In this document: piece after piece, positions 4,301 through 20,367 of the stretch
Position numbering within the stretch: the first letter of the stretch is position 1
Layout: the number at the start of each line of letters is the position of its first letter
Virus record (IMG/VR): IMGVR_UViG_3300029852_000006
Strand: one strand, 5' to 3'
Source: a virus
Lineage: Duplodnaviria; Heunggongvirae; Uroviricota; Caudoviricetes
Length of the DNA: 64,000 bases
Notes under the pieces: generated by a model
The model's database searches: none
What the model was told of the DNA's origin: nothing
What the model saw: only the letters and a program-made list of their open reading frames with translations
Position numbers and translations under genes: made by a program

Positions 4301-5641
4301 ATGCCACTCCCCAATTACACCGATATTCTCAACACCATGTCGCCCACCATCACATGGCAGGACAACACCCCATGCCGCACCACTTTCAGAGTAATTTTCA
4401 CCAAGGCTCTGGCCTGCACGGTTTATCCCCGCCTCACCGCAGGCAAAACCCTTGCCATCCTTGGCGATGATTCCGGCCTCCAGCCTTCCACTAACCCGAA
4501 TGAATCCCTTCTGTTCTTTGTCACCGATAAAGCCGCCATCCCCGATTCCATCCAGGAAGTCAAGGATATTGGCGCTTATCTCTCTGATAAGTACAAAGTT
4601 TATCAGGATGCAGTCGCCCGTATCACCATCGTCCAGTTCCAGCGCGACGGCGACCTCTACAGCAGTGTTTTTTACCAGCGTGTTGCCTCAGCCATGCCCC
4701 GCCTGCTGCCCTGGCTCTTCAAGGATCACCCCCTCACCTCCGATGAGCTCGCTTACCTCCGCGCCCTCTCCACCCCGGATACTGGCTCGGAAACCCTCGC
4801 CCGGATGGCGGAGCCTCTTTATAACAAAACCGATCTGCCCTCCAGAGCCGTAGATAAAGCGATTGAATCCCTCTTCAAAGGTACCATTGACCGCCGTAAA
4901 GCGGATCTCAGGCGCTCTATTGAAAACCTTTACCGTCAGTTGAAAGAAACCCGCGCCCGTATCTCTGGAATTTTTACCAACATCACCAGCATCAACTGTG
5001 AGCTGACCGGCCTTGACTCCAAAGATGAATCTACCTTTATCACGGAACTCAAGGATTATCTCCACACCCAAAAAGGTATTTCCGTCGATACTGACGATGG
5101 AGCGCTTCTCCTCACCATCACCACATTCCTCTCCAACTATGACCCGGATGATGTCGAAACCTTTATCTTCAACAGTTACCACCCCTATGAGGATCTTACC
5201 GGCGAAGAAGAACACGATGTCCGCATCCTTTTCCGGGCTGTGTTCATTGACCATATCTTCAAAATCAAACTCGCTGCCACCTATAAGCTTAATTACGACT
5301 GCCATGTCACAGCCATGTCCGATGAAATCAATATGAACGTTGTTCAGGCTGTTCCCAACCCTCACATCAATCATCACTCCTGCCTCGGTAACTATGAACC
5401 CATGCTGGAGGATGCCGAGGATCGCCGAGATTTTATTGCCGCCATTGCCATCTGTCAGCAGAGCGCCAGCAGCATGAACCTCGTCGAAACTATCTCCACC
5501 AAATATTTCTTTAATGATTTTGCCACCGCCTATCACACGGATATCCCCGTCATCCTGACCGCCGCCGGTGAATCCATCACCCCCAAGCAGGCCATTGAAC
5601 AGCTCAAATCCGCAAATGATTCCGTTAAGGAAGGAGAATAA
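4301..5641 (+). CDS. hypothetical protein (446 aa); possible E2-like component
   Basis: Sits at the E2 position between candidate Ubl and JAB/E1. Segment 'PNPHINHHSCLGNYEP' loosely resembles the UBC HPN...C-L active-site region. Speculative. Confidence 0.5.
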   Translation: MPLPNYTDILNTMSPTITWQDNTPCRTTFRVIFTKALACTVYPRLTAGKTLAILGDDSGLQPSTNPNESLLFFVTDKAAIPDSIQEVKDIGAYLSDKYKVYQDAVARITIVQFQRDGDLYSSVFYQRVASAMPRLLPWLFKDHPLTSDELAYLRALSTPDTGSETLARMAEPLYNKTDLPSRAVDKAIESLFKGTIDRRKADLRRSIENLYRQLKETRARISGIFTNITSINCELTGLDSKDESTFITELKDYLHTQKGISVDTDDGALLLTITTFLSNYDPDDVETFIFNSYHPYEDLTGEEEHDVRILFRAVFIDHIFKIKLAATYKLNYDCHVTAMSDEINMNVVQAVPNPHINHHSCLGNYEPMLEDAEDRRDFIAAIAICQQSASSMNLVETISTKYFFNDFATAYHTDIPVILTAAGESITPKQAIEQLKSANDSVKEGE

Positions 5642-5643
5642 CC

Positions 5644-6408
5644 ATGCAAGTTATCCACATTGATCAGACCGCTCTGGATGCCGCCATCGAACTCTATCGC
5701 CAGCAGCTCCTCGCCGGCTCTGTTAAGCTCGCAAAAACCAAAGCAAAAGATAAAATCAACATCAATTTTACCGCCGATGCTTGGGCCAAACAGTCCCGCC
5801 TCATTGATGATTTCACTTCCGAAGTCGCCTGGCACGGCCTCATGCGCCAGCTTTCCCCCACCGAGTATGAAATCTATGATATCCTCGTCTACCCCCAGCA
5901 GGTTACTGGTGTCACCGTCGAAACCGACCAGGATAAATACAACGACTGGCTGCTCTCCCAGCCCGATGAAATCTTCAACAACATCCGCTACCAGGCCCAC
6001 AGCCACGTCAACATGTCCCCTTCCCCTTCCGGCGTTGATGACGAAAACGAGTCCAAAATTGTCAATAAGCTCAAGGGCAATGATTTCTACCTCTTCATGA
6101 TCTGGAACAAGCGCGGCGAGTTCACCGCCCGCCTGTATGACTACGCCGCCAACAAAATCTACGATAAAGATGATATCTCTGTCACCTACACCGATACCCT
6201 CTCCGATTTTGCCGCCACCGCTCAGTCCCTTGTCACCAAAGCTCTGCCCGTCTATTCCGCAGCGCACCCTCCCGTCAAGCCCACCGGCGGTACCGTGCCC
6301 CACGTCGTCTGGGATAACGCCGCCCGCTGCTGGATGGACGATGACGGCAATTATTACGACCACTACCCCACCTATTACGATTATCACACCAACGGAGGTG
6401 CCTTATGA
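5644..6408 (+). CDS. JAB/MPN (JAMM) metallopeptidase-like protein
   Basis: Exact JAMM signature H-S-H-x7-S-x2-D ('HSHVNMSPSPSGVDD') with upstream Glu. Confidence 0.7.
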   Translation: MQVIHIDQTALDAAIELYRQQLLAGSVKLAKTKAKDKININFTADAWAKQSRLIDDFTSEVAWHGLMRQLSPTEYEIYDILVYPQQVTGVTVETDQDKYNDWLLSQPDEIFNNIRYQAHSHVNMSPSPSGVDDENESKIVNKLKGNDFYLFMIWNKRGEFTARLYDYAANKIYDKDDISVTYTDTLSDFAATAQSLVTKALPVYSAAHPPVKPTGGTVPHVVWDNAARCWMDDDGNYYDHYPTYYDYHTNGGAL

Positions 6409-7088
6409 ATCTTGCCAAAAGCCTGGATGTCTTCTCCCCGCATGATGTCAAAGGCCGCATCCACATCATTGGCTGCGGTTCGGTCGGCTCCACCATCGCG
6501 GAGCTTCTTGCCCGCTATGGCCTGACCAACTTCACCCTCTACGATTTTGATACGGTGGAAAAGAAAAACATCGTCAACCAGATGTTTTTTGATCCTCAGG
6601 TCGGCCAGCCCAAAGTGGAAGCCCTCCGCGATATTCTCTGTGCCATCAACCCGGAGGCCAAAAATGATATCCGTTTGGAACCTTCCGGCTGGAACGGCCA
6701 GCCCCTCTCCGGTTACGTTTTTCTTGCCGTGGATAACATCGAGATCCGCCAGAAAATCGTGGATGCCAACCGCTTTAACACCTTCATTAAAGCCATGTTT
6801 GATGTCCGCACTGCCCTCTTTGACGCCCAGCTCTATGCCGCTGATTGGTCAGACCCCAAACAGGTCGCGGAATTTCGCGCCACAATGAACTTCACCCATG
6901 CCGAAGCCACCGCCCAGGTTCCCGTTTCGGCCTGCGGCACTACCCTCGGTGTTGCCCCCACGGTTCGCGTTGCCGCCTGTTATACCGTCACCAACTTCCA
7001 AAACTTCATCAAAAAAGGCGAGCTGATCCATACCGGTCTCTCCGCCCCCTTCAACCTCCAGGGTGAATCCGCTTTCCTCGGTCTGTAA
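6405..7088 (+). CDS. E1-like ThiF/MoeB-family adenylyltransferase
   Basis: Rossmann motif 'IIGCGSVGSTIA' (GxGxxG) followed by 'YDFDTVEKKNIVNQ' matching the ThiF/E1 D-x-D-x-V-x-x-S/K-N-x-x-R/N-Q block. Confidence 0.75.
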   Translation: MNLAKSLDVFSPHDVKGRIHIIGCGSVGSTIAELLARYGLTNFTLYDFDTVEKKNIVNQMFFDPQVGQPKVEALRDILCAINPEAKNDIRLEPSGWNGQPLSGYVFLAVDNIEIRQKIVDANRFNTFIKAMFDVRTALFDAQLYAADWSDPKQVAEFRATMNFTHAEATAQVPVSACGTTLGVAPTVRVAACYTVTNFQNFIKKGELIHTGLSAPFNLQGESAFLGL

Positions 7089-7478
7089 CCCTGTCGTCTT
7101 AGCGTTCCATTAAATTTCGTTTGTGTTGTATACTGTAAGCTTTTTCGCTTCAGGCTCTTCGGTCATATCCAAGAGTACGAATTTGTTACCCCGACCCACC
7201 CCTCCACCTGATCCTGGCCAGCGGATCTGACGGTGACGCCCGAACACATATCGCATCGTCCAAACCTTTTGACACACACCGACTGGTAGAAGAATACTAA
7301 GCCCAATCAATGAAAATTCGAAGATCAGGGTCTAATGGTAGCACAAAGTCCCATCAGAAATCAGTTCAAAAGCTCAACAGTTCAAGGGCATTCTCTTCGG
7401 AATCGGCGACGGAGTCGTTCCTGCAGCCACTATCTCCCATCAGAACACAAACATAACCCTCACATAAGGAGCACTCGT
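7089..7478 (+). ncRNA. candidate structured ncRNA upstream of the reverse transcriptase
   Basis: 390-nt ORF-free stretch in a tightly packed region. Contains the conserved hairpin motif (7155-7185) and a C-rich tract; 9-nt inverted match gtttgtgtt / aacacaaac near its two ends. Confidence 0.3.
7155..7185 (+). repeat. conserved hairpin motif copy 1 (stem ctctt/aagag, loop CGGTCATATCC, then tacGAATTTG)
   Basis: One of 7 copies sharing the loop CGGTYATAYCC closed by co-varying stems. Confidence 0.6.
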
Positions 7479-8669
7479 ATGGTTTACATCACTTATAACT
7501 GCCCGGAACGTTTCCGGGAAATGACGTTTGAAGAACTCCTCCGCGGGGATTTTAACCTCGCAAACCTTTCCACCGGCGGCCACGGTGCTACCCGTACCGT
7601 CATCTGCAACAAAGTTCCTCCCCGCATCATGCGCATCACCAAGGTGGAGCAAATGATCCTCCAGCTCCAGGCGTTCAACCAGCAGTATGAATCCCTTCGC
7701 CTCACCACTCCCCGTTCCAGCCTGTACAACCATTTCCCCATCCCCAAAGCCTCCGGCGGTCTCCGCTGGATCGATGCCCCCAATTCCGACTTAATGAAAG
7801 CCCTCAAGGAACTCAAAACCCTCTTTCAGTCCTGGATGTTTGCCGACCACCACACCTGCGCTTTCGCCTATGTCGAGGACCGCAGCGTCCTCTCCGCCGC
7901 CAAACGTCACCAAAAGTTCGGTGCCTGGTGGTTCGCCCACTTTGATTTCCATGGCTTCTTCCCCTCCACCACGCCGGAGTTTGTCCTCTCCCAGTTTGAA
8001 CTCATTTATCCTTTCAACCTCATCCTTGCCAGCCCCACCGGCCGCGCGGAACTGATCAAAGCCCTTGACCTCTGTTTCCTTAACGGAGCATTGCCGCAGG
8101 GCACCCCCATCTCCCCGCTCATCACCAACATCATGATGATCCCCTTTGACCACGCCTTCGCCAAGGCTGTCAACCATTTTGAATCCGGCAAGCATAACCC
8201 GGACGGAACCCCCATCACCGACCGCCTCTGCTACACCCGCTACGCCGATGATATCATCGTCTCCTGCAAAGTTATCTTCAATTTCCATGCTGTCGAGCGC
8301 CTTATTGTCCAGCTTCTCTCCCAAATGAACGCCCCCTTCACCCTCAATGAAAGCAAAACCCAGTTCCGCTCCCGCGCCGGCCGCAACTGGATTCTTGGCG
8401 TCATGCTCAATAAGGATAACCAAATTACAGTCGGCTACCGCAAAAATAAAATCTTCAAAGCCACCATTGATACCTACTTCCGCGATAAACAAAAGGGCAA
8501 AAAGTGGCCGGATGAAGACCTTCAGTCCTTCCAGGGCAACATTACCTGGTTCAAGGATGTCCAGCCCGATACCACCAAATACATTATCCAAAAGTATAAC
8601 GCCAAATATGGCCTTGACCTTGAATCCTGTATCAAGGCCGATCTCGCCCCGCCCAGCGTAACCGCATAA
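7479..8669 (+). CDS. reverse transcriptase (stand-alone; retron/DRT/Abi-like class undetermined)
   Basis: RT motifs 1 (IPKASGGLRWI), 2 (DFHGFFPS), 4 (LPQGTPISPLITNI), 5 (YTRYADDIIVS), 7 (LNESKT). RBS AAGGAG before ATG 7479 (six-frame ORF extends to 7335). No maturase or endonuclease domain. Confidence 0.85.
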   Translation: MVYITYNCPERFREMTFEELLRGDFNLANLSTGGHGATRTVICNKVPPRIMRITKVEQMILQLQAFNQQYESLRLTTPRSSLYNHFPIPKASGGLRWIDAPNSDLMKALKELKTLFQSWMFADHHTCAFAYVEDRSVLSAAKRHQKFGAWWFAHFDFHGFFPSTTPEFVLSQFELIYPFNLILASPTGRAELIKALDLCFLNGALPQGTPISPLITNIMMIPFDHAFAKAVNHFESGKHNPDGTPITDRLCYTRYADDIIVSCKVIFNFHAVERLIVQLLSQMNAPFTLNESKTQFRSRAGRNWILGVMLNKDNQITVGYRKNKIFKATIDTYFRDKQKGKKWPDEDLQSFQGNITWFKDVQPDTTKYIIQKYNAKYGLDLESCIKADLAPPSVTA

Positions 8670-8740
8670 TCCAAAAAAAAATCAATTTGTTTTCAAAGGT
8701 AAAGTTTCGTTTTGATTTTATTTCAAGTCAAAGCCAAACA

Positions 8741-8771
8741 CCCTCCGGTTATATCCGAGGGTTTGAATTTG
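8741..8771 (+). repeat. conserved hairpin motif copy 2 (stem ccctc/gaggg)
   Basis: Compensatory stem change relative to copy 1, identical loop family, followed by tttGAATTTG. Confidence 0.6.
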
Positions 8772-9231
8772 TCCCCCTGTCCCACCCCCTGGCCAGGACT
8801 CACTCACGTCGCAGCAGCGACTGCATCGAGTCATCGTACTCCCAGACACACGATGGGTCGCCCCACAGCGCATCAGAAAGGGCGGGCCAATGCCCCAGTC
8901 TTTAACAAAATAAGCGAGCAACATCGGAGGCCGCCCCAATCAAACTCAGAAGATCAGTCATCACCACCATCCGATTCCGGTGGCTGCCTCTCATCAGCTT
9001 TCACAAATTGATTTTTATTTTCTCCATTCCGCCCCATGGTTCCGGGGCATTCCCAGGCGCTTCAGTTGTTTCTTCTTTTCTTAGCAGCTCGTTGCGCCCC
9101 CTGTTCGTGCGCCTGGTAAACGCACGGTCATGGTTTTACTTTCCTTTCGCTGGGCCTCCGGCCATCCCAATGGTTGGAGCGCCTGGTAATACCCCGGAAC
9201 CCGCCCACAACAATGAATTCAGGTGATTTTT

Positions 9232-9522
9232 ATGAAACTTATCTCCCCCGGCTCACGGGTCAAATTCTTTACCGTAGGACCAGTTATCAGCCCGGATCAC
9301 AACCCCCTGAAAACTAAATTTCAAATCATCTATCTCTCCGGCACCGTCCAAGAAGATATCGGCAACTGCGTCATCGTCTGGACCGATGATTCCCGCACCT
9401 TCCACGTCCCTCATGGATACATCACCGAAATCCAGGACCCCAACGATCCTTTCACTTATAAGTCTCCCAATACCGTACCTTCCCCAACCGTTTCTTTTGA
9501 TGAAATTATTTCCGCCCTCTAA
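9232..9522 (+). CDS. SFD-L-tail family small protein, paralog 1/13
   Basis: RBS AGGTGA; C-terminus ...VSFDEIISAL. Confidence 0.55.
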   Translation: MKLISPGSRVKFFTVGPVISPDHNPLKTKFQIIYLSGTVQEDIGNCVIVWTDDSRTFHVPHGYITEIQDPNDPFTYKSPNTVPSPTVSFDEIISAL

Positions 9523-9540
9523 TTCATACAGGTGATTCTT

Positions 9541-9804
9541 ATGGACCCTTATTACATTCAACCCGGCACTCCCGTCTATTTTGAAATCAGAACGCTACAT
9601 GGCATAGCCCGTCGTACCCTCCACGGCTTTGTCCAATCTGATACTGGCGCTTATGTCACCGTTATTGTCCCCAGTATGAATAACAAAACATTTATCGCCA
9701 CCCATTCCGCCTTTACTTATGACGATACCCCCGAAGCCGTCACCCCCGCTCCTCTCCCCACTCCTTCCATCTCTTTTGATGAACTTATTTTTCAAGGCAG
9801 GTGA
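9541..9804 (+). CDS. SFD-L-tail family small protein, paralog 2/13
   Basis: RBS AGGTGA; C-terminus ...ISFDELIFQGR. Confidence 0.55.
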   Translation: MDPYYIQPGTPVYFEIRTLHGIARRTLHGFVQSDTGAYVTVIVPSMNNKTFIATHSAFTYDDTPEAVTPAPLPTPSISFDELIFQGR

Positions 9805-9810
9805 TTCCCC

Positions 9811-10107
9811 ATGACCCCCTTCCTCCCCGGCTATGAACCTGGCACCTGGGTCGAGATCGTCTCCGCTCCGGAAATGCTCTGCTCCCTCCAGTATGATTAC
9901 GGCACCACTTTCACCCTCACCGATTCTCTCCCCTATGATCCTATCCTCGGCAAGCAGGGCAAGATCGTTGCCATCCTCGGCAAATCCGGCCTTCTCCGCC
10001 TCTATTTTCCTCACAGCGATTCCTACCACATCATCCCGCCCAGCATGATCTCCCGCACTATCCCCGCTCCGTATCCCAGCTTTGATTCTCTTATCGCAAA
10101 CCTCTAA
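9811..10107 (+). CDS. SFD-L-tail family small protein, paralog 3/13
   Basis: RBS AGGTGA; C-terminus ...PSFDSLIANL. Confidence 0.55.
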   Translation: MTPFLPGYEPGTWVEIVSAPEMLCSLQYDYGTTFTLTDSLPYDPILGKQGKIVAILGKSGLLRLYFPHSDSYHIIPPSMISRTIPAPYPSFDSLIANL

Positions 10108-10133
10108 CCCCCATCACAGAAAGGAAGCCTACC

Positions 10134-10490
10134 ATGAATCCCACCTATAAAGTTGGTGATGTTGTCCAAATCATCTCCGAAGAAGAAGTTCGTTCCCATC
10201 CTACGGATGATTGCGGCAATTTTATTCTTATTCCTTCTATTTACGGCGCAAACGATTCTTTTCACAGAGATAAACTTCCTGTTTGCGGCTGTCCGGCTGT
10301 TATTACCCGCATTTCCAAAGGCAATGAAAGGAACCTATACGATCTCACCCCTCTCTTCGCTGAAGATAGAACCGTTTTTAACTGGAATGACTGGTTTTTC
10401 TCCGCCGCTGAATTTCACCCTCGTGTCGTTTCTCCGCCCCCGGTTCCTTCCATGTCCTTCGATGATCTTCTGAAAGGAGCTGCGCAATGA
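10134..10490 (+). CDS. SFDDLLKG-family small protein, paralog 4/13
   Basis: C-terminus ...MSFDDLLKGAAQ; stop overlaps next start (ATGA). Confidence 0.6.
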   Translation: MNPTYKVGDVVQIISEEEVRSHPTDDCGNFILIPSIYGANDSFHRDKLPVCGCPAVITRISKGNERNLYDLTPLFAEDRTVFNWNDWFFSAAEFHPRVVSPPPVPSMSFDDLLKGAAQ

Positions 10491-10855
10491 ATTTCCCCAC
10501 CTACCCCGTTGGCACCCTCGTTCAAATCATTTCTGACGCAGAGTTTGACGCTCTTCCCAAAAATGATGCTGGCTGTGCGCTGTTTCTCGATCCCCTTCCT
10601 AATGGTAACGCAGATTATATACCCCCTAAACGCCGTTCTCTTTGTGGCAGCATCATGCAAATTGATCGTAAACTTGACGCTTCTGGTTTTTACTTCTTAA
10701 AACCCTACGATCTCTCCACCGCTGTCGATCCCTCCGCAGCTGCCAAATTCTCTTGGAACTCCGCTCTTTTCTCCCCCAATGAATTCCACCCCTATGGTAC
10801 CCCGGTTCCCGTTTCCCCTGTTTCCTTTGACGATTTCCTGAAAGGAGGCATTTGA
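10487..10855 (+). CDS. SFDDLLKG-family small protein, paralog 5/13
   Basis: C-terminus ...VSFDDFLKGGI. Confidence 0.6.
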   Translation: MNFPTYPVGTLVQIISDAEFDALPKNDAGCALFLDPLPNGNADYIPPKRRSLCGSIMQIDRKLDASGFYFLKPYDLSTAVDPSAAAKFSWNSALFSPNEFHPYGTPVPVSPVSFDDFLKGGI

Positions 10856-11239
10856 ATGCCAGCCCCCTACCCCACCTACCACGTCGGTGATCGCGTCATC
10901 GTCCGCCAGTGGGATGATATGATGGAAGAATTCGGCTCCAATCCTTACGGTGATATCACTGTTCATCCCAATAAACTTTCTTTTATTCTTGACATGAAAC
11001 CTTACTGTGGCAAAGAGTTTATTGTTGTCAAAATCGTTCATGATAAAGATCTTCCTGATGAACCCATTTATTTTCTCAATTATTCACCGGATGTTTATGT
11101 AGACCTTAATGATGGTGATTCTCCTCGCGGTTGGTTTTTCACCTCTGCCATGCTTCTCCCCGCAACTCTCCCCAATGAACCCCAAAACCGTATTCCCACC
11201 CCTTCTCTCACCTTCGATGATTTACTTCAAGGAGTCTAA
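10856..11239 (+). CDS. SFDDLLKG-family small protein, paralog 6/13
   Basis: N-terminal 'YPTYHVGDRVIVRQWDDMMEEFG' module; C-terminus ...LTFDDLLQGV. Confidence 0.6.
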   Translation: MPAPYPTYHVGDRVIVRQWDDMMEEFGSNPYGDITVHPNKLSFILDMKPYCGKEFIVVKIVHDKDLPDEPIYFLNYSPDVYVDLNDGDSPRGWFFTSAMLLPATLPNEPQNRIPTPSLTFDDLLQGV

Positions 11240-11244
11240 TAACC

Positions 11245-11601
11245 ATGGATACTACCTTTAACCCCAATGACTATCCTACCTACCAAATTGGCGATCGAGT
11301 TACCATTCGCCAATGGGACGATATGAAGTCAGAATTTGGTTTGAACAGATTTGGTGACATTAAAGTCCCAAAAGCTTGTTTCACAGAGCCTATGAGAAAA
11401 TATTGCGGGAAGACACTCACCATTGTCCGTAAAAACCACCATCTATCTCCGAATTCTGATTGTTACTATTTCGACGGTAGCACAATGGTTTTTACTTCCC
11501 TCATGTTTGAACAATCTTATCCCACAGTTGTCTCCTCCACTCTCTCCTTTGATGATTTGTTGAAAGGAATTACCTCTCAACTGGCAAATCCCCAAGCATA
11601 A
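11245..11601 (+). CDS. SFDDLLKG-family small protein, paralog 7/13
   Basis: N-terminal 'YPTYQIGDRVTIRQWDDMKSEFG'; C-terminus ...LSFDDLLKGITSQLANPQA. Confidence 0.6.
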   Translation: MDTTFNPNDYPTYQIGDRVTIRQWDDMKSEFGLNRFGDIKVPKACFTEPMRKYCGKTLTIVRKNHHLSPNSDCYYFDGSTMVFTSLMFEQSYPTVVSSTLSFDDLLKGITSQLANPQA

Positions 11602-11730
11602 ATACCACGGCGCTTCCATGGCCGATTTTGCCAGCCACACCCCGCCGTGTCCCAACGATCAACCTCAAAAATAAAACAGCTTAACAAGGTAAAGAATCAT
11701 TTGCTGATTATATTTTCAGTTCATGCTTCA

Positions 11731-11762
11731 CTCTTCGGTTATATCCAAGAGTTCGAATTTGT
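11731..11762 (+). repeat. conserved hairpin motif copy 3 (stem ctctt/aagag)
   Basis: First 35 nt nearly identical to copy 1, then diverges into a C-rich tract. Confidence 0.6.
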
Positions 11763-11980
11763 TACCGCCTCCCCCTCCTGGATCGCAGGCGCCTGCTGCA
11801 GACTGAGCGCCTCATCGCGCGCTCGCGATGACACCAAAAGACCCACCACAGAGCCAAAATAAGCGATAACACGTCATGCGCAAGACAAACTTTTGATCCA
11901 CCCCAAAAAGACCGTTTCCCACCAGCTTGTTCCCTGTTTTATTTTGAATCTATTTTTACCATCAGAAAGGATCAACCATT

Positions 11981-12136
11981 ATGACCAAACTTACCTACAC
12001 CCTCGCTATCATCAACGGTACTGTCTGCTATGAATGTCAGCCCTCCACCCCGCACGCCTTCTATTCGGGCGGCGGCTGGTTCGCCCCGTTCTGTACCGTC
12101 CTCGAACTCACCCGCAAAAACACCGTCAAAGCATAA
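11981..12136 (+). CDS. hypothetical small Cys-containing protein (51 aa)
   Basis: RBS GAAAGGA; not in ORF table (<60 aa). Confidence 0.3.
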   Translation: MTKLTYTLAIINGTVCYECQPSTPHAFYSGGGWFAPFCTVLELTRKNTVKA

Positions 12137-12185
12137 CAAATATCCAATATCTATTTATCCCATATCACAGAAAGGAACTTTCAAA

Positions 12186-13622
12186 ATGACTCAAAATCTT
12201 ACCCTTGTTACCCAAAAGCCTTTTGGCTCCCTCACCTGCAACGTCTACCAGGACGAAAACAATAAAAACGAATTCTACATGACAAGGCGTCAAATTGGTG
12301 AAGCACTAGGCTATGTAAAAGCTGATGATGCTATTTGGCAAATTCATGAGCGAAATAAAGATCGCCTTGACTCTTTTTCAGAAACCTCCGTTCTGGGGGT
12401 CGCTGAAGGAAATCGCACGGTACGCCGTGAAATTTGTGTATATACTTTGAGGGGGGTTATGGAAATCTGCCGTTTCTCCCGCCAGCCCAATGCGGATAAA
12501 TTCATGGACTTCGTATGGGACGTTATGGAATCCCTTTACTATGGCCGCAGCGTCCTCGCCACCCCAGACCAAACCTCCGCCGTCGCCATGCAAACCATCC
12601 AGGCTCTTGTTGATTCCACCCTCAAAACCCAGGCCGAAACCACCCGCTGCATGGTCACAATGACCACCACCCTCGCTGCCCTCGCCAACCATTTCACCGG
12701 TGCCGTTCCCGCTCAGCAGCCTGCCCCGCAACCCGTCACCGTCACCCCCAAGGATTATGCCGTCCACGATGACCCCGCCCCCAGTTCCAAAAACGAATCC
12801 ACCCCGGTACCCGCCCCGCAAAAGTCAAGTGTCCCTGTTACTGTAACTCCAAAATCTGCATCCGCCCCCGTTACCTGGCGTGATGAAGTCTACCAAACCA
12901 TGGATAAAATCATCCGCAATGCCCCGGAGCTTTACCCCTCCCGCCGCGATATCCTCAACCAGATCTACGCCAAAATGAAACGGGATTACGGCTTTGTCCA
13001 GGAGCAGGAGCGCATCAACTACCGCAAAGCCCATGCCTGCACCTCCTACCTCTCCACCATCCAAATCATCGGGGCCTCCACCACCTACCGCGAAATCTTT
13101 GATTCCATTTTGAACGATATCTATAACGATGCCATCATCAAGCACGTCCGCAAAAACGATTCCAACCCCAATTCTCAGCTCCCCCTCGGCGTCCAGCGGG
13201 AACTTGGCCTGATTAAAGATGAACCCTGTATTATCAAGTCCCCCACCACCGACCTTGATTCTCAGCCCGTCCCTGCTCCCCTCCCGGACGAACCCAAAAA
13301 CTATAAGCCCATCCCTTCTCAGTCCCTTCTCGATGAACGCGCTGCCGCCATCAATGCCGCCATCGCCAAAGCCGCTGCCATCTACCATGATACCTCCTGC
13401 AACTTCTCCGTCACCTACCGCAACGTCTATAAAAATATGAATACCGATTGGGACGAAGTTCACACCCAGTTCCGTGCCCGCTATCATCGCGGTGCCCAGC
13501 AGCTCAAAACCCTTGTCATGTACAGCGACGTCCTGTTTGATCGCTTCAATGCCGCCGTCAACACTTATATTAACGCCGCATCCAAGCCGGAAGTCGAATC
13601 CGCATCCAAGAAGGAGGCTTAA
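12186..13622 (+). CDS. phage antirepressor-like protein (Bro-N/ORF6N-type N-terminal domain)
   Basis: N-terminal block 'FGSLTCNVYQDENNKNEFYMTRRQIGEALGY...IHERNKDRL' typical of ORF6N/Bro-N antirepressor domains; RBS GAAAGGAAC before ATG 12186. The six-frame ORF start at 12030 overlaps the previous gene. Confidence 0.6.
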   Translation: MTQNLTLVTQKPFGSLTCNVYQDENNKNEFYMTRRQIGEALGYVKADDAIWQIHERNKDRLDSFSETSVLGVAEGNRTVRREICVYTLRGVMEICRFSRQPNADKFMDFVWDVMESLYYGRSVLATPDQTSAVAMQTIQALVDSTLKTQAETTRCMVTMTTTLAALANHFTGAVPAQQPAPQPVTVTPKDYAVHDDPAPSSKNESTPVPAPQKSSVPVTVTPKSASAPVTWRDEVYQTMDKIIRNAPELYPSRRDILNQIYAKMKRDYGFVQEQERINYRKAHACTSYLSTIQIIGASTTYREIFDSILNDIYNDAIIKHVRKNDSNPNSQLPLGVQRELGLIKDEPCIIKSPTTDLDSQPVPAPLPDEPKNYKPIPSQSLLDERAAAINAAIAKAAAIYHDTSCNFSVTYRNVYKNMNTDWDEVHTQFRARYHRGAQQLKTLVMYSDVLFDRFNAAVNTYINAASKPEVESASKKEA

Positions 13623-13624
13623 AT

Positions 13625-14230
13625 ATGTCTACCCTCACCATCCCCGTTCAAACCAAACAAACCCTCACCGGCACCTACGCCAAATCCGGCAATGATCTTT
13701 ATTTTATCTCCGAAGAACCCGACCTCTTTCCTCCCAACCCCCGCACGGATTGGGATTGTTACTCCACATTCTATATCGCCCCCAACCGTTATTTCTCCGG
13801 TGATATACCTGTCAGCGCTTTTGTCCCTGATGTCAAAGCCGGCATCGAACCTGAATACGTCAAACTCCCTATCTATGCCTACGTTCACTCCGCCATCGCT
13901 CTCTCCACCACGCCGTTCCATGATGATTTTGATTCCGGCCTTGCCGGTTTCGCCGTCTGCACCCGCCAGGACGTGGCCGACCTCGGCTACTCCACCCCGG
14001 ACTGGCGCTCCCATGCGGAGAACGTGATCAAAAGTGAGCTTGAACTCTATCAGCAGTACCTCAACGGCGAAGCAAAAGCTCTCACCCTCTATCAATATAA
14101 CCCCGATTCCAATGAGTGGGAAGTAAACAATTCCTGCGGCGGCTGCTATAACATCGAATCCGATCAGGATATGGTTGATGTCTTCTTTTCCAACGCCACC
14201 GCCCTCGACCACCCCGATTTTGAATCCTGA
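13625..14230 (+). CDS. hypothetical protein (201 aa)
   Basis: ORF with coupled start (TAAATATG). Confidence 0.5.
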   Translation: MSTLTIPVQTKQTLTGTYAKSGNDLYFISEEPDLFPPNPRTDWDCYSTFYIAPNRYFSGDIPVSAFVPDVKAGIEPEYVKLPIYAYVHSAIALSTTPFHDDFDSGLAGFAVCTRQDVADLGYSTPDWRSHAENVIKSELELYQQYLNGEAKALTLYQYNPDSNEWEVNNSCGGCYNIESDQDMVDVFFSNATALDHPDFES

Positions 14231-14265
14231 CCCCCCTACATACAAAAAAAAAGGAAGTTGATCTT

Positions 14266-14958
14266 ATGCTTTACACCGTCAACGGTCATGAATATTCTTC
14301 CGATTCCACCCCCAACCAAAAAATTCTCGACCAGCTCATCAACCGTGAAGTCTTCTGCAATATGAACCAGGAAATGGATTTTATCCTCTCTGCCCTCGCT
14401 TATGACGCTAGTATCCCGGAAGATTCTCCTTTCGATGAATCCGATTACGAATCCGCTATCTGTGATGCTTCCTCCCAAACCTGCTCCGAGTGCGGTAATT
14501 CCAGCTATTTTGATGAAGTTGACGTCACGGACCTCGATGATTCCAAATTCCAAAACCCGGATTATGATTCTGACGTCCCGGACACCGTGGACCCCTATAT
14601 CTGCCCCGTCTGCGGCCTCACCTATCCTACTCTCGCCCAAGCCCGTGCCTGCTGCGAGTCCGAAACTGTTCATGTCTGCCAGTGTTGCGGTGCTGTCTAC
14701 AGTGACGATGAATACGATGACCTCGATACCACCCCGCCCGAAATCTTTGAATGGTGGGCGGTCTCCAACTGGTTCGGTGAAAAGCTCAAAGCCCGCGGTG
14801 AAGTCGTTCTTGATTGCTGGGGCAAGTCCTACTGGGGTCGCCAGACCACCGGTCAGCCCATCTCTCTTGATTTCGTTATCGCTTCCATCGCCAAGGAAAT
14901 GCAAATCCTGGATGGCCAGCCCCATTCCTGGGCACCCAAACCCCAGTCCAATCAATGA
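14266..14958 (+). CDS. hypothetical Cys-rich (zinc-ribbon-like) protein
   Basis: Multiple CxxC pairs (CSECG, CPVCG, CQCCG); RBS AAAGGAAG. Confidence 0.5.
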   Translation: MLYTVNGHEYSSDSTPNQKILDQLINREVFCNMNQEMDFILSALAYDASIPEDSPFDESDYESAICDASSQTCSECGNSSYFDEVDVTDLDDSKFQNPDYDSDVPDTVDPYICPVCGLTYPTLAQARACCESETVHVCQCCGAVYSDDEYDDLDTTPPEIFEWWAVSNWFGEKLKARGEVVLDCWGKSYWGRQTTGQPISLDFVIASIAKEMQILDGQPHSWAPKPQSNQ

Positions 14959-14969
14959 GGTGATTTTTT

Positions 14970-15362
14970 ATGACCTTCCAAGACCTCTACCTCGGCCAGC
15001 GCGTCCGCATCCTCTCCTGGGATGAACTCAATCACACCGGCTATCATGATAGTGCCTATGGTATTTACTTGCCGGACAACTCATTCTTTAATAACGGAAT
15101 GAAATACCTCTGCGGTGCCACTCTCACCATCGTAAAAGAACCTTCCTATTCTGACAGCGATGAAGATTATCTTTCTCCCGATATCTTCCAGTTCGATGAT
15201 CCTCTTCTCTCTTTCTCTCGTTCTTATGGCGCCGCCTTCCCTACAATCCGCCACTGGTCCCTATCACCCGCCATGCTCGCCCCTCTTAACGAATCCTCTC
15301 CCGTCATTCCTCCCGCCATCTCTTTTGACCAACTCCTTGCCGGAGGTGAACTCCCTCAATGA
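14970..15362 (+). CDS. SFDDLLKG-family small protein, paralog 8/13
   Basis: C-terminus ...ISFDQLLAGGELPQ; RBS GAGGTGA. Confidence 0.6.
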   Translation: MTFQDLYLGQRVRILSWDELNHTGYHDSAYGIYLPDNSFFNNGMKYLCGATLTIVKEPSYSDSDEDYLSPDIFQFDDPLLSFSRSYGAAFPTIRHWSLSPAMLAPLNESSPVIPPAISFDQLLAGGELPQ

Positions 15363-15694
15363 AACCTCTTAACCCTGCCGATTATCCTACCTACAACGTC
15401 GGAGATAAAGTTACCATCCGTCAGTGGGATGATATGGAATCCGAATTTGGTTTGGACGAATATGGTGGAATCAAAGTCCCAAAAACTTTCACAAAGTTTA
15501 TGAAAAAATATTGCGGACAAACACTTTCCATTGTTCATGTAAACCGCTATCCATCTCCAAAATTTGATTCTTATTTTTTCGACGGTACTTCCGTGGTTTT
15601 TTCTTCCCCTATGTTTGAACAATCCAAACTCCAATCCGTTCCGCCCTCTTCTCTCTCTTTTGATTCTCTTCTCCAAGGTGGTGACTTCTTTTGA
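15359..15694 (+). CDS. SFDDLLKG-family small protein, paralog 9/13
   Basis: 'YPTYNVGDKVTIRQWDDMESEFG'; C-terminus ...LSFDSLLQGGDFF. Confidence 0.6.
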   Translation: MKPLNPADYPTYNVGDKVTIRQWDDMESEFGLDEYGGIKVPKTFTKFMKKYCGQTLSIVHVNRYPSPKFDSYFFDGTSVVFSSPMFEQSKLQSVPPSSLSFDSLLQGGDFF

Positions 15695-16098
15695 TCCCCG
15701 AAACAACCGATCTTTTTTACCCCACCATCCTTCCTAACCAAGAAATTCTCTTTCCCTCCTTCGCTCAATGTAAAGCTCTCTATGATGATTTTCGCCAAAG
15801 CTCTGATCTACGTAAACAATCCGTCGCTCCCTATATGAACTTATCAGCTCGGTTTCATTTCGGTTTCTGTCCTGTTTCTGACGTTACTGCCGTTTCCCGC
15901 GGTGATTTTGATTCCCCTCAAATCGTTACCGCCACAGGTATCTGCAATCAAAATTTCTTTCAGTTCACCACCCAGGATGGCAAAATGTATTACGCTTCAA
16001 AAATTTATGCCGCCTACCAATCTCTTATGGAATCCTCCCCCGTGCCTACTCCTCCCCCTTCCGTTTCCTTTGATGATTTACTTCAAGGTGGTGCTTAA
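15691..16098 (+). CDS. SFDDLLKG-family small protein, paralog 10/13 (TTG start)
   Basis: C-terminus ...VSFDDLLQGGA. Confidence 0.5.
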   Translation: MIPETTDLFYPTILPNQEILFPSFAQCKALYDDFRQSSDLRKQSVAPYMNLSARFHFGFCPVSDVTAVSRGDFDSPQIVTATGICNQNFFQFTTQDGKMYYASKIYAAYQSLMESSPVPTPPPSVSFDDLLQGGA

Positions 16099-16101
16099 CC
16101 T

Positions 16102-16419
16102 ATGCCGTCTTACCCTCACAGATTTCAGCCTGGCGATACGGTCACAATCCGCGCCTGGGATGATATGCTCTCTCAATATGGCAGCTTCAGCGGTGAATTA
16201 GGAATTAAAACCCCTTATATAATCTTTAGCGATAGTATGAAACAGTATTGCGGTCGCTCTTTCAAAGTCAAACATGTCTGGCCATCCATTAACGATAAAT
16301 ATTGGATTTATAAATTGGACTGCTGCTATTTCCCTTTTACTGAAGACATGTTCGTTTTTGCCCCACCTGTTCCTGCTTCTACCATTTCTTTCGACGATCT
16401 TATGAAAGGAGCCACATAA
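16102..16419 (+). CDS. SFDDLLKG-family small protein, paralog 11/13
   Basis: 'GDTVTIRAWDDMLSQYG'; C-terminus ...ISFDDLMKGAT. Confidence 0.6.
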   Translation: MPSYPHRFQPGDTVTIRAWDDMLSQYGSFSGELGIKTPYIIFSDSMKQYCGRSFKVKHVWPSINDKYWIYKLDCCYFPFTEDMFVFAPPVPASTISFDDLMKGAT

Positions 16420-16715
16420 TGAGTTCGTATTTTCCTCAAGTCGGTGATTTTGTTATGATCCGCCCCTGGGATGATATGGTAAAAGAGTTTGGCACTGATT
16501 CCTATGGGGATATCCCAACGCTTCCTGCCGCCATCTTTCAAAGTATGAAACAATATTGCGGTCATTTCTACACTGTTGAACGTGTAACCACTACCGCTGT
16601 TGGCTCCTGGTGCTCTTTTGCGGATGTAAACTATGATTTTCCTGTCTGTTCTCTTGTGTTGCCCGTCTTTGAATCCTCTCTCACCTTTGATGATCTTATG
16701 AAAGGAGCTTCCTAA
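16419..16715 (+). CDS. SFDDLLKG-family small protein, paralog 12/13
   Basis: 'GDFVMIRPWDDMVKEFG'; C-terminus ...LTFDDLMKGAS. Confidence 0.6.
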   Translation: MSSYFPQVGDFVMIRPWDDMVKEFGTDSYGDIPTLPAAIFQSMKQYCGHFYTVERVTTTAVGSWCSFADVNYDFPVCSLVLPVFESSLTFDDLMKGAS

Positions 16716-17050
16716 TGAATTTTAACCCTCGGCCCGGTGATACCGTCACCATCCGTACATGGGATGACATGGCAGAAGAATACGGTTTGAATGAAAGTGG
16801 TGGAATTAAAACTCCGTATATCACCATTTTGCAAGGTATGAAACAATTCTGCGGCTACTCTTACATTGTGAAAGATGTTTACAATACATCTGATAGACGA
16901 ATGTATTCTTTTTACGGTTTCCATTATATCTTCCCTATCTGTGCTCTTGCCAGTTATTCTCCCTCCCTGCAGTCCATTCCCATCCCGCAGTCCATTCCCA
17001 TTTCCTCCATCTCTTTTGATTCCCTCATCCAGCCTCTCACCACCCCCTGA
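16715..17050 (+). CDS. SFDDLLKG-family small protein, paralog 13/13
   Basis: 'GDTVTIRTWDDMAEEYG'; C-terminus ...ISFDSLIQPLTTP. Confidence 0.6.
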   Translation: MNFNPRPGDTVTIRTWDDMAEEYGLNESGGIKTPYITILQGMKQFCGYSYIVKDVYNTSDRRMYSFYGFHYIFPICALASYSPSLQSIPIPQSIPISSISFDSLIQPLTTP

Positions 17051-17517: not shown

Positions 17518-17919
17518 ATGTCCTACTTTACCCGCTACACTCTCGATGTCTTCCGCGATGATACCCCCGCTTTTATCCCGGAACCCACCCGCCGTGCCAT
17601 CCAGCATGAACTCCAAACCCTTTACGCCGATGCTTCCCCTTGCCTCAGACCCTTCGATCCTTCCGCCTATTTTTATGATGACGAGAACGATATCCTCACC
17701 TTCGACCCCGAAAACGAATGTCCGTTCGATGTCGCCAACGATATGATTAAACTCTCCCGCTCCTTCCCTTCCCTCACCTTCCGCATTACCTCCAAAGGCG
17801 AATGTGACGATGACTACTGGCGTCAGTATTTTGTCAATGGCAAAACCTGTACCTGCCCCGGCAAAATCGAAATCACTTACGCCCCCTATAATCCCCGCAA
17901 CCTCGAAGCCCCGTACTGA
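17518..17919 (+). CDS. hypothetical protein
   Basis: RBS AAAGGAGA before ATG 17518. Confidence 0.45.
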   Translation: MSYFTRYTLDVFRDDTPAFIPEPTRRAIQHELQTLYADASPCLRPFDPSAYFYDDENDILTFDPENECPFDVANDMIKLSRSFPSLTFRITSKGECDDDYWRQYFVNGKTCTCPGKIEITYAPYNPRNLEAPY

Positions 17920-18014
17920 TAACCGTACCACTTCCCATTTTTGTAATATTTTCCACCACCTCGTTTTACTTTTAACATTGTTCTATAACAAAAATCAAAA
18001 GGAGTTACATAATT

Positions 18015-19151
18015 ATGAAAATCGTCAACACCGGCATCAAGTACCAGATCTACAATGATTCCCTTCGCACCTTCGATTTCCTGCCCGCCGCCACCTACTG
18101 CGTCCGTTTCTCCAAGCTCAGCGGCTTCTACCTGGAATCCCGCCCCAATATGCAGGTCAACGAAACGGTCTATGGCCCGCATGAATCCAAGGTCGAAAAA
18201 GTTATAGCGTCCTACAACGCTTTCCCGCGTTCTCTTGGCGTCATCCTCAGCGGCGCAAAAGGTATCGGCAAGTCCATGTTTGCCCGCCTGCTCTCCACCC
18301 GCGCCATCTCTGCCGGCTTGCCCGTCCTCATTGTCGATGAAGCCATCCCCGGCATCGCCTCCTACCTCGAATCCATCGACCAGGAAGTCATGATCCTCTT
18401 TGATGAATTCGATAAAACCTTCGCTCACCCCTCCGATGATGATAAAACCGATCCTCAGTCCACCATGCTCTCCCTGTTCGATGGCACCTCCAACGGCAAG
18501 CGCCTCTTCGTTGTCACCTGCAATGATCTCAAAGGTCTCAATGATTTCCTTGTCAACCGTCCCGGCCGCTTCCACTACCACTTCCGCTTCGATTACCCCA
18601 CCGCCGATGAAATCCGCACCTACATGCAGGATAAGCTCAAGCCGGAATATTATGACCAGATCGATGCCGTCATCGGTTTTGCCGGTCGCGTTGACCTCAA
18701 TTATGACTGCCTGCGTTCCATCTCCTTTGAACTCAACACCGGCCTGCCTTTCACGGAAGCCATCAAGGATCTGAACATTGTCAACCTCAACGCTGAGCGC
18801 TATAACATCACCATGAAATTCGCAAACGGTATTGTCTATACCGCCAGCAATGTCCGCCGTGATCTCTTTGACCCCTCCTCGGAAGAATACGTTCGCTTCT
18901 TTAACAAAAACGGCGATTTTATCTTCGAAGTCACCTACAACAATGATTCCGTTCAGTTCGATAAAACCTCCGGTACTCCCTTTGTTGAAGGCAAGGACCT
19001 CACATTTGAATACCGCCACATCTCCGATGATGAACTCTCTGACCCGGATGAAAAGGCTTGCTATGACGCCATCACCCAGATCAAATCCACCACTCCCGCC
19101 GCTCTCGCCTTCCGCCGCACTCGCTCCCGCGATATCCACTACGCCGTCTAA
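18015..19151 (+). CDS. AAA+ family ATPase
   Basis: Walker A 'GAKGIGKS', Walker B 'ILFDEFD', sensor/arginine region 'VVTCNDL...NRPGRFH'. Confidence 0.7.
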   Translation: MKIVNTGIKYQIYNDSLRTFDFLPAATYCVRFSKLSGFYLESRPNMQVNETVYGPHESKVEKVIASYNAFPRSLGVILSGAKGIGKSMFARLLSTRAISAGLPVLIVDEAIPGIASYLESIDQEVMILFDEFDKTFAHPSDDDKTDPQSTMLSLFDGTSNGKRLFVVTCNDLKGLNDFLVNRPGRFHYHFRFDYPTADEIRTYMQDKLKPEYYDQIDAVIGFAGRVDLNYDCLRSISFELNTGLPFTEAIKDLNIVNLNAERYNITMKFANGIVYTASNVRRDLFDPSSEEYVRFFNKNGDFIFEVTYNNDSVQFDKTSGTPFVEGKDLTFEYRHISDDELSDPDEKACYDAITQIKSTTPAALAFRRTRSRDIHYAV

Positions 19152-19163
19152 GGGGGTTGTCCC

Positions 19164-20147
19164 ATGTCCGCCACAAATCCGCTTTACGATGAAGAGCTTC
19201 ACTGCCGTCACTGCGCTTATCATGGCATCAAATGTAAGCGTGCCAATAACATCACTGTCAATCTTGTTTCGAATTGCGCCCATCTTCACTACGGTTCCTA
19301 TCAGGGCATTTGTTCTGATTTTGCTCCCAATCCCAATTACCCGTTCTACTTCAAAAACTGGACAAGCTTCCAGGATTATTTTGATCACGCCGCCCCGGAT
19401 ATCCCCCGTCCCAACCTGGCCGACCAAACTGCCGCCGCTGTTTTCTGTTTCAATGGCGATCGCAGCATTCTTTACTTTGTCAGCCAGAACGATTTTATCT
19501 TCGGCAACCTCTATCAGGATGGTAAGCTCCGCACCGTCTATCGCCAGGTCAAAACCAAAAACATTCATTCTTCGTCCGGCTATTCCTATCCAACCGAAGC
19601 CTGTGATTTCATTCCTCTGCCCCAAGGTGCATCCGTTCCGCTGGAAGCTGTCTTCACCACCCAGCCCGCCTATCCGCCTTTAATCTACACCCCGCCTCTT
19701 ACCCCGGAACAGGATTGTCCTTACCCCTATGATGAAACTTTTACCCCAAAAGTATGGGAAGGCAATGATTTCATGCCGCCGCCCACCGTCTGCCCCTGGG
19801 GTTCCAACGTCCACCGCTGGCTCTCTTATTTTGGCGAAGGCTACACCTCAGCAAAGGATGATTCTCCCCTCGATCTCTACTGTTCTCCGTCCGCTGGCAT
19901 CCGCCTGCAAGTTACTGGTCCCTACTTCTACTTAACGGAAACTCACCCCGGTGCCGAGCTTCTTTTTACCAACAATGAATCCCATCGCAACTTTCTGGCT
20001 CAAGCCTGCACTCTTGCCCACCGCGATATGCCCAGGGACCGTGCCCTGCAACTCCTCTCCCGCACAAAACCGGATTGCAAACTCTGGCAGATTTTGCGTG
20101 CTCACTGCCTGCCCCTTGCCCAGTCCGCCTATGATTTCACCCAATAA
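19164..20147 (+). CDS. hypothetical Cys-rich protein
   Basis: N-terminal CxxC...C.C cluster; IS-like element inserted immediately downstream of its stop. Confidence 0.5.
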   Translation: MSATNPLYDEELHCRHCAYHGIKCKRANNITVNLVSNCAHLHYGSYQGICSDFAPNPNYPFYFKNWTSFQDYFDHAAPDIPRPNLADQTAAAVFCFNGDRSILYFVSQNDFIFGNLYQDGKLRTVYRQVKTKNIHSSSGYSYPTEACDFIPLPQGASVPLEAVFTTQPAYPPLIYTPPLTPEQDCPYPYDETFTPKVWEGNDFMPPPTVCPWGSNVHRWLSYFGEGYTSAKDDSPLDLYCSPSAGIRLQVTGPYFYLTETHPGAELLFTNNESHRNFLAQACTLAHRDMPRDRALQLLSRTKPDCKLWQILRAHCLPLAQSAYDFTQ

Positions 20148-20150
20148 ATC

Positions 20151-20367
20151 GGGTATTTGCAAAAATAGGTGGTTTGAATAAAACCATCTGTTTTTACAAA
20201 TACCACAGGCATTTGGATGTTTGTTGCGCCTATCGATTTTCCCAGTTGATAGCTCCGCACGAGTGGCATTGTCTCGTACAATACCGCTCACAGCAAACAC
20301 CCAGCCAAGGGAAACACAACCTCCTGTTTCAGCAGGAGAGACTTACAGTAAAAGGAGGGTAGCGTAT
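20151..20367 (+). ncRNA. candidate omega-RNA of IscB-1
   Basis: Conserved position of the guide/scaffold RNA immediately 5' of iscB; inferred from family knowledge, not folded here. Confidence 0.35.

Follow-up and report, generated by a model that had tools for sequence, protein, structure and literature searches.

Arrays of small gut-phage proteins share a lineage-specific C-terminal peptide that is probably a docking or sorting tag

The internal proteins of phage T4 carry an N-terminal capsid-targeting sequence that is cleaved by the prohead protease, and the ip loci are fast-evolving. The cargo-loading peptide of encapsulins is C-terminal and sits on a flexible linker. Phage T4 gp43, gp33 and gp55 have interchangeable hydrophobic/acidic C-terminal epitopes that bind the clamp, are carried on divergent linkers and also function when internal (PMC2988020). 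In the ubiquitin-like proteins (Ubls) of Bil operons, a Gly is universally conserved and up to nine variable residues come after it; these are trimmed by a JAB peptidase (PMC10557695). This report concerns a window of 64,000 nucleotides (the whole stretch of DNA that was analysed; IMG/VR record IMGVR_UViG_3300029852_000006) from an uncultured gut phage of ~145-kb. Thirteen small proteins, p1 to p13, are encoded there in two arrays and end in a common FDxLL-type peptide (Table 1). This peptide is probably a modular C-terminal docking or sorting tag on fast-evolving small, probably early, proteins. By analogy, the clamp epitopes of T4 gp43, gp33 and gp55 would be its nearest functional precedent, and capsid-targeting and cargo-loading peptides may be regarded as an alternative one.

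All thirteen open reading frames (ORFs) contain the motif [ST]F[DE][DESQ][LIF][LIM] within 14 residues of the stop codon, with F and D invariant. The strict motif occurs in 14 of the 557 stop-to-stop ORFs (≥50 residues, six frames) of the window. Thirteen of these 14 are the array ORFs, in which it is always near the C-terminus, and no other ORF among the 557 has it in that position. The shared C-terminal motif is far beyond chance. Each of the invariant F and D columns has 30 pairs of differing codons, every one a synonymous difference. TCT, TCC and AGC serve as codons for the preceding Ser, and CTT, CTC, TTA and TTG for the first Leu. Since the variation at F and D is exclusively synonymous, the tag peptide itself is under selection. 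Direct repeats of 23–54 nucleotides, which include the Shine-Dalgarno (SD) sequence and the start codon, are present at gene ends; the tag is not a mere by-product of these DNA repeats. A Pro/Ser-rich stretch precedes the tag. The typical member consists of an SH3-like barrel, a flexible Pro/Ser-rich linker and the short amphipathic [ST]-F-D-x-L-L peptide, which has an 'FxxLL' hydrophobic face. p1 and p10 have only the tail in common with the family. In all thirteen proteins the tag is internal by 2–12 residues. The first-pass annotation had described a near-invariant SFDDLLKG(G) end on every member, followed by 0–8 residues. The FDxLL-type core of this description is present in 13 of 13, while KG(G) is found in only ten, and p7 exceeds the proposed tail length with 12 residues after LL.

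K/Q-G-(G) and the short variable tail are the translated SD sequence and spacer of the next gene and lie outside the functional peptide. The codons following the motif read AAAGGAG, AAAGGAGG, CAAGGAG, GGAGGTGA, AAGGTGGTGA or AGGCAGGTGA and are located 6–11 nucleotides upstream of the next start. In nine of the ten tails with Gly, the Gly codon is inside AAGGAG, GGAGGTGA or AAGGTGGTGA, with the next start 6–11 nucleotides further on. p7 alone departs from this rule: it closes array 1 and retains AAAGGA as a relic. Gly is missing from p1, p3 and p13, and precisely in these three the downstream SD sequence follows the gene's own stop codon (Fisher p = 0.014). Furthermore, the first Gly of the tail is encoded by GGA in 7 of 10 cases, compared with 8 of the 71 Gly codons in the rest of these genes (p = 1.6e-4). 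The related locus L007 obeys the same rule and has extra residues only where the SD sequence or start of the next gene overlaps. Because the Gly-Gly and the tail are the ribosome-binding site of the next gene, the tag is read as a docking or sorting signal and not as a Ubl processing site.

The same arrays are found in the same synteny on many metagenomic phage contigs of 140–150-kb. Tagged arrays are also present in other lineages, each with its own version of the tag. In the clade of the window this is FD[DS]LL plus tail. A sister clade, with an AAA ATPase ~51% identical to that of the window, has 4–12 paralogues per locus, which end in F.SLL-stop, C.C[DE]SLL-stop or.C[KR]SLL-stop. About 94% of them end exactly there, with no Gly and no tail, and a single genome has up to ~11 paralogues with ...SLL-COOH as their exact end. 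In L007 the gene order is reverse transcriptase (RT), ten paralogues, Metallophos and AAA, and 6 of the 10 paralogues end in ...FDxLL-COOH with no Gly. In L089, a 101-kb contig (regions 1950-8323 and 8561-9673), an RT gene is followed by ~17 small genes with the common tag ..[DA]F[VLI]-COOH. About 14 of these escape detection by the SH3-like hidden Markov model (HMM), including a 'MFHEKMTIHCSTEEEA...' family. The tags of L090, L091 and L092 are ..[IVA]L.., LF.FLL and [DN]FL..[FIM], respectively. The L089 array is also interrupted by a TnpB/Cas12f-like IS605 OrfB gene.

The tag is thus modular, being borne by bodies with no detectable SH3-like similarity (L089, p1 and p10), and it is uniform within a genome and different between lineages. 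Co-evolution with one common receptor would be expected to give such a pattern. The tag would bring every array member, whatever its body, to this receptor, and the variable bodies would supply differing specificities, much as a set of adaptors for early host takeover or for anti-defence would. The receptor and the phage lineage probably evolve together, and the receptor would then be either phage-encoded or a fast-evolving host partner. A docking or targeting function had been the fallback of the first-pass annotation; on comparison of the sequences, a tag that is modular, lineage-specific and independent of Gly argues in its favor.

Several points weigh against this interpretation. No sliding clamp, PDZ domain or other peptide-binding protein was recognized among the window ORFs scanned against Pfam, and a 374-residue ORF considered as a clamp has exclusively unannotated relatives. 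In the AlphaFold2 (AF2) model of p7 the tail has low predicted local distance difference test (pLDDT) scores, with a short helix over FDDLLK. That the array genes are expressed early is an assumption drawn from their position. Window-clade tags are internal and those of the sister clade terminal; either a free carboxylate does not matter or the tails undergo trimming. The conserved neighborhood may stem from common descent rather than function. The AAA ATPase downstream of the arrays was considered as a specific partner of the tag and down-weighted. Enterococcus Herelleviridae have an 'ATPase' with ~49% identity to it, and in phage ECP3, the single context examined, the gene lacks an adjoining array, so that the ATPase is not an array-specific partner.

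Two further candidates for the role of the peptide were rejected. A membrane-targeting amphipathic helix was dismissed by reasoning, the tag being acidic/hydrophobic and not basic. Mimicry of the tail of single-stranded DNA-binding protein was discarded because the sister-clade tags are not acidic.

Translational coupling links the thirteen genes, which make up a multigene family encoding small proteins. All are on the + strand in two blocks, 9232-11601 (array 1) and 14970-17050 (array 2), as had been proposed. Sizes range from 87 to 135 residues; the upper bound given earlier was correct and the lower one, 88, is undercut by p2. Likewise, the overlapping stop and start codons ascribed to the arrays are found at only about half of the junctions, the others being spaced by 0–26 nucleotides. 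The ATG starts of p1 (9232) and p2 (9541) are confirmed, with AGGTGA 5 nucleotides before each.

The arrays evolve fast and shuffle. Relatives that are 95–100% identical in E1, RT and AAA show a median identity of 70–97% in their array genes. Chimeric paralogues are present in related phages (proteins P0011, P0034 and P0095, relatives of p6, p7, p9 and p12), such as a p9-like N-terminus joined to a p12-like C-terminus or a p6-like N-terminus joined to a p7-like tail. Together with copy numbers of 10–14 in the loci of the window clade, these chimeras point to recombination within the arrays.

The typical body is predicted to be an SH3-like β-barrel of ~85 residues, nearest to the Mind bomb REP or SH3_15 type. 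The AF2 model of p7, based on an alignment of 60 sequences, has a confident core (residues 11–90 with pLDDT above 90), and the structure that matches it most closely is the REP domain with which the E3 ligase Mind bomb 1 binds substrates. Of the two folds suggested earlier for the N-terminal domain, SH3-like and β-grasp, the model thus favors the former; a β-grasp is not predicted for the array proteins. Eight of the 13 members are detected by an HMM derived solely from distant relatives, p5 is found with a wider profile and p3 weakly over its full length, in agreement with the earlier view that most members share an N-terminal module. p2 was missed by the HMM searches, the sole SH3-like test applied to it.

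The domain has the signature VGDxVxIRxWDDMxxEFG...CG...W.F..eM.E and defines a family of 2054 cluster representatives at E ≤ 1e-3, often with 2–5 tandem copies per protein. Pfam SH3_15, the sole recurrent Pfam match, is hit by 23 of 132 longer relatives at E ≤ 1e-3 (best E = 2.5e-9). Sporadic fusions to DUF3310, DUF4406/Nuc_deoxyrib_tr, dGTP_diPhyd_N, Amidoligase_2 and GNAT occur among the relatives. The window proteins themselves do not match SH3_15 even at E ≤ 1 (p1–p10) or E ≤ 0.1 (p11–p13). None exceeds a Pfam, PHROG, NCBIfam or PADLOC threshold, the only match being a weak one to phrog_7488 (function unknown). A PDB sequence search with the family profile returned nothing, and GenBank phages gave no match in a DNA search of the region or by tblastn with two distant family members. 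Family members in NCBI or JGI are named only 'hypothetical protein'. Compared with Mind bomb REP and SH3_15 domains, the signature is peculiar to the phage family; a RING or E3 context is missing from the phage proteins, and 0 of 13 reach the Pfam threshold.

The tags resemble the T4 clamp epitopes in that a small C-terminal peptide of hydrophobic and acidic character on an unstructured, divergent linker serves one hub in T4 (PMC2988020). The systems differ: no gp45-like or DnaN-like clamp was recognized among the scanned window ORFs, and the tag is borne by 5–20 paralogous or unrelated small proteins per genome instead of three replication and transcription factors. The bacterial clamp-binding consensus QL[SD]LF needs Gln at position 1, followed by x-[SD]-L-[FL], at or near the C-terminus. 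Position 1 is F in the window clade and F or C in the sister clade, never Q, while the [SD]-L-L part is similar. A class I PDZ ligand, [ST]-x-hydrophobic-COOH, has its motif at the free C-terminus, which the 2–12 further residues preclude in 13 of 13 window members; the SLL-COOH of the sister clade would fit. With the T4 ip loci and encapsulin cargo, the arrays would share the format of fast-evolving, varied small proteins with a short terminal sorting peptide, a likeness in format only; the context of the arrays is not structural.

A Ubl–(446 residues)–JAB–E1 cassette is located upstream of the arrays, and its gene order is that of Bil operons. As the first-pass annotation had noted, JAB and E1 are ~2 kb from the arrays; the RT gene and a non-coding stretch of 550 nucleotides lie in between. 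The 75-residue Ubl matches SUMO, ubiquitin and BilA (8tyz, 26% identity) in Foldseek, with probability 1.0 and template modelling scores of 0.6–0.72. Its family is highly conserved and the C-terminus is invariantly K[AQ]DNA plus 0–1 residue, not Gly. The 446-residue protein has no Pfam, NCBIfam or PDB match and is possibly E2-like, as read from its PNPHINHHSCLG motif. Membership of the cassette in a PRTRC system was discarded, as the E1 matches PRTRC_ThiF only weakly (E = 4e-5, far below the cut-off) and the other genes do not match. The association of JAB and E1 with the arrays is a conserved synteny: the window and sister clades have it, and a ThiF gene that lies upstream of RT and tagged genes suggests it for L092. 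This synteny might indicate a functional link other than array proteins being Ubls. The sister-clade loci contain parts of the order Ubl, 446 residues, JAB, E1, RT, arrays and AAA, depending on their upstream reach.

This neighborhood had led the first-pass annotation to propose that the array proteins are Ubl-like precursors, whose tail is trimmed by JAB after Gly or Gly-Gly and which are adenylated by the ThiF-type E1 and conjugated to targets. The proximity of JAB and E1, their synteny in the sister clade, the ThiF gene upstream of RT in L092 and the Gly after the motif in 10 of 13 members speak for such a function, and the arrays superficially resemble BilA-type precursors of Bil/Bub operons in having a conserved residue, a variable tail and JAB and E1 neighbors (PMC10557695). 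The array proteins differ from these precursors in their predicted SH3-like fold, in a Gly that is not conserved and in tails that consist of SD sequence and spacer. Gly is absent from p1, p3 and p13, from ~94% of the sister-clade members, although JAB and E1 are kept there, and from 6 of 10 L007 members; where present, its codons are accounted for by SD sequences. Furthermore, the cassette has its own 75-residue β-grasp Ubl with an invariant family C-terminus, which is the true Bil-like Ubl of the phage. The proposal is already contradicted at the level of the family and is hardly credible for the window. The array proteins could instead be substrate receptors of the cassette, a panel of E3-like adaptors whose bodies bind targets and whose tag docks on the 446-residue protein, the E1 or the JAB. 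The Ubl would be transferred to whatever each array protein holds, and a captured host or defence protein would then be marked, inactivated or relocalized. Such a role fits the Ubl-446-JAB-E1-RT-array synteny of the window and sister clades, the order ThiF-RT-tagged genes in L092, the similarity of the modelled body to a substrate-binding domain of Mind bomb 1 and a lineage-specific tag, which suggests a phage-encoded partner. The synteny may, however, be inherited rather than functional, and the RT gene and the 550-nucleotide stretch separate cassette and arrays. L005, L090 and L091 have tagged SH3-like genes with no E1, JAB or RT within 7–10 kb, and the E2-like nature of the 446-residue protein is read from the PNPHINHHSCLG motif in a protein with no sequence match. 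We regard the adaptor role as unlikely.

A packaging signal, by which the peptide would bind the procapsid interior, portal or scaffold so that the small proteins are packaged and injected with the DNA, is rather unlikely. Unrelated bodies whose flexible, Pro-rich linker leads to a short terminal peptide, fast evolution akin to that of the T4 ip loci and a variation between lineages as expected for co-evolution with a phage structural protein would all agree with it. The arrays are, however, located among RT, Bro-N, AAA and replication and nucleotide-metabolism genes and not among structural genes, no prohead-protease site is known, and 13 or more packaged species would be unusual. ssrA-type degrons are C-terminal, and the sister-clade SLL-COOH is reminiscent of them; a ...LL end might be recognized by host ClpXP or ClpCP or by the phage AAA ATPase, syntenic in four lineages and of the classic clade, and thereby limit the lifetime of early proteins. 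A tag for conserved host proteases should not vary this much between lineages, further residues follow the tag in the window clade, and the ATPase is widespread in Herelleviridae, with no adjoining array in the one context examined, which makes a degron quite improbable. It is very improbable that the conserved feature is a nucleotide-level element (a coupling signal, cassette boundary or recombination site) with an incidental peptide, or that hetero-oligomers arise by binding of the tail to the SH3-like groove of neighboring paralogues. The repeats at gene ends and the existence of recombinant paralogues would suit the former, and MIB REP domains, which bind peptides, the latter. Invariant amino acids with synonymous variation argue for selection on the protein, and the peptide is kept in other lineages with different codons and junction architectures. 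Because most tagged L089 bodies are not detected as SH3-like, a general interaction of SH3 domain and tail is unlikely, and the tail was not docked on the barrel in the AF2 model of p7. Docking or sorting by a common receptor thus remains the preferred reading of the FDxLL peptide.

The gene order in this part of the window is 75-residue ORF, 446-residue ORF, JAB, ThiF-type E1, retron-type RT, array 1, Bro-N, 201-residue ORF, 230-residue ORF, array 2, 146-residue ORF, 133-residue ORF and AAA ATPase; the 230-residue ORF between the arrays is Zn-finger-like. The block of cassette, RT, arrays and AAA ATPase is found, complete or partial, in up to five lineages. RT is immediately 5' of the tagged-gene arrays in up to five lineages and the AAA ATPase is conserved downstream of the arrays in four. 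The nearest cultured relatives of this ATPase belong to the Enterococcus Herelleviridae.

Table 1. Positions of the array genes, the genes of their neighborhood and other features of the window.
Feature	Position	Strand	Length (aa)	C-terminal end	Remarks
p1	9232-9522	+	96	...SPTVSFDEIISAL	Body with no detectable SH3-like similarity; own SD AGGTGA 5 nucleotides before ATG
p2	9541-9804	+	87	...SISFDELIFQGR	SD of p3 within tail codons CAAGGCAGGTGA
p3	9811-10107	+	98	...PYPSFDSLIANL	No Gly; weak, diverged SH3-like; SD of p4 in 26-nucleotide spacer after stop
p4	10134-10490	+	118	...SMSFDDLLKGAAQ	SH3-like; SD of p5 AAAGGAG; ATGA stop/start overlap
p5	10487-10855	+	122	...PVSFDDFLKGGI	SH3-like; SD of p6 AAAGGAGG
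p6	10856-11239	+	127	...SLTFDDLLQGV	SH3-like (WDDM..EFG); SD of p7 CAAGGAG
p7	11245-11601	+	118	...TLSFDDLLKGITSQLANPQA	SH3-like, member modelled; last of array 1; AAAGGA retained with no following gene
p8	14970-15362	+	130	...AISFDQLLAGGELPQ	SH3-like; SD of p9 GGAGGTGA
p9	15359-15694	+	111	...SLSFDSLLQGGDFF	SH3-like; 60% identical to p7; SD of p10 AAGGTGGTGA
p10	15691-16098	+	135	...SVSFDDLLQGGA	Body not detectably SH3-like; SD of p11 AAGGTGGTG
p11	16102-16419	+	105	...TISFDDLMKGAT	SH3-like; SD of p12 AAAGGAG
p12	16419-16715	+	98	...SLTFDDLMKGAS	SH3-like; SD of p13 AAAGGAG
p13	16715-17050	+	111	...SISFDSLIQPLTTP	SH3-like; no Gly; SD of next gene (17064) GAAAGGA, just past TGA
Ubl	3938-4165		75		Model β-β-α-β-β β-grasp, pLDDT 90
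446-residue ORF	4301-5641		446		PNPHINHHSCLG stretch
JAB peptidase	5644-6408				HxH...S..D motif; weak Pfam and PADLOC matches
ThiF-type E1, minimal	6405-7088		227		Pfam E = 2e-22
Retron-type RT	7479-8669				PADLOC RT_II-A 148 bits; NCBIfam retron St85 169 bits, below NCBIfam cut-off
AAA ATPase, classic-clade	18015-19151				Closest PDB relatives by sequence Afg2/Drg1-type
374-residue ORF	34383-35507		374		Considered as clamp
Long-range stem	8677-8690 with 9003-9016				Downstream of RT
Hairpin	9038-9064 with 9175-9201				Downstream of RT; 27-nucleotide arms
49-nucleotide repeat, copy 1	7155-7203				Upstream of RT
49-nucleotide repeat, copy 2	8741-8789				Upstream of array 1
49-nucleotide repeat, copy 3	11731-11779				Upstream of Bro-N gene
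IscB-like ORF 1	20221-21906				RRXRR + HNH
IscB-like ORF 2, with preceding RNA	28535-30242				RRXRR + HNH
HEARO/omega-type RNA	28535-28794				Rfam 83.4 bits, just above gathering score

Diversification of the arrays by the adjoining RT, in the manner of a diversity-generating retroelement, was rejected because the RT is retron-like and the mismatches between repeats are not adenine-specific. In the longest repeat pair (p7/p9), differences are found at all four bases and are mostly transitions. The 550-nucleotide non-coding stretch 3' of RT folds unusually well (z = -4.7), with a long-range stem and a long hairpin, and could be a candidate non-coding RNA of the RT. Rfam gave no credible match on the non-coding stretches flanking RT.

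A direct repeat of 49 nucleotides is present in three intergenic copies that are 76–86% identical. It holds a small hairpin (CTCTTCGG...CCAAGAG) followed by TTCGAATTTGT and may be a promoter or regulatory element. Scans for promoters and terminators gave counts no higher than in shuffled sequence. Two ORFs of the window are IscB-like, and a HEARO/omega-type RNA precedes the second one.

Other genes of the window encode a DnaE-type polymerase, a DnaB-like helicase, NrdD, ThyX, dUTPase and PhoH, and there are two tRNAs. For the polymerase, the nearest cultured relatives are large phages of Bacillus and Geobacillus. Nearly all genes are on the + strand. The GC skew of positions 1-62000 is strongly and uniformly negative (-0.1 to -0.35), and this gives rise to many long spurious ORFs in other frames or on the minus strand, such as 17886-19625 (minus, 579 residues). 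The contig L110 (CAKRPJ010000001.1, 141,618 bp), binned with an uncultured Lachnospiraceae metagenome-assembled genome, has two matches to the IRQWDDM pattern ~4.2 kb apart, a distance similar to the p7–p9 spacing in the window. Judged by this pattern, it is possibly a genome of the same phage clade and may be a weak hint at a Lachnospiraceae host.

The presence of a Ubl–(446 residues)–JAB–E1 cassette beside a retron-type RT on a phage genome is noteworthy in its own right. The arrays also hold a warning: in tightly packed operons, a conserved Gly-Gly with a disposable tail can be a mere translated SD sequence. Should the tag be a docking or sorting signal, a whole class of small phage proteins that otherwise resist annotation, dozens of them per genome, would be defined by one short peptide, and finding its receptor would show how an abundant phage lineage of the human and animal gut deploys its diversified early proteins. 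The tag is searchable, lineage-specific and transferable between bodies, and could possibly be used as a pull-down handle. More speculatively, a large lineage of gut phages could have a C-terminal 'address label' system on unrelated early proteins that resembles a sorting signal.

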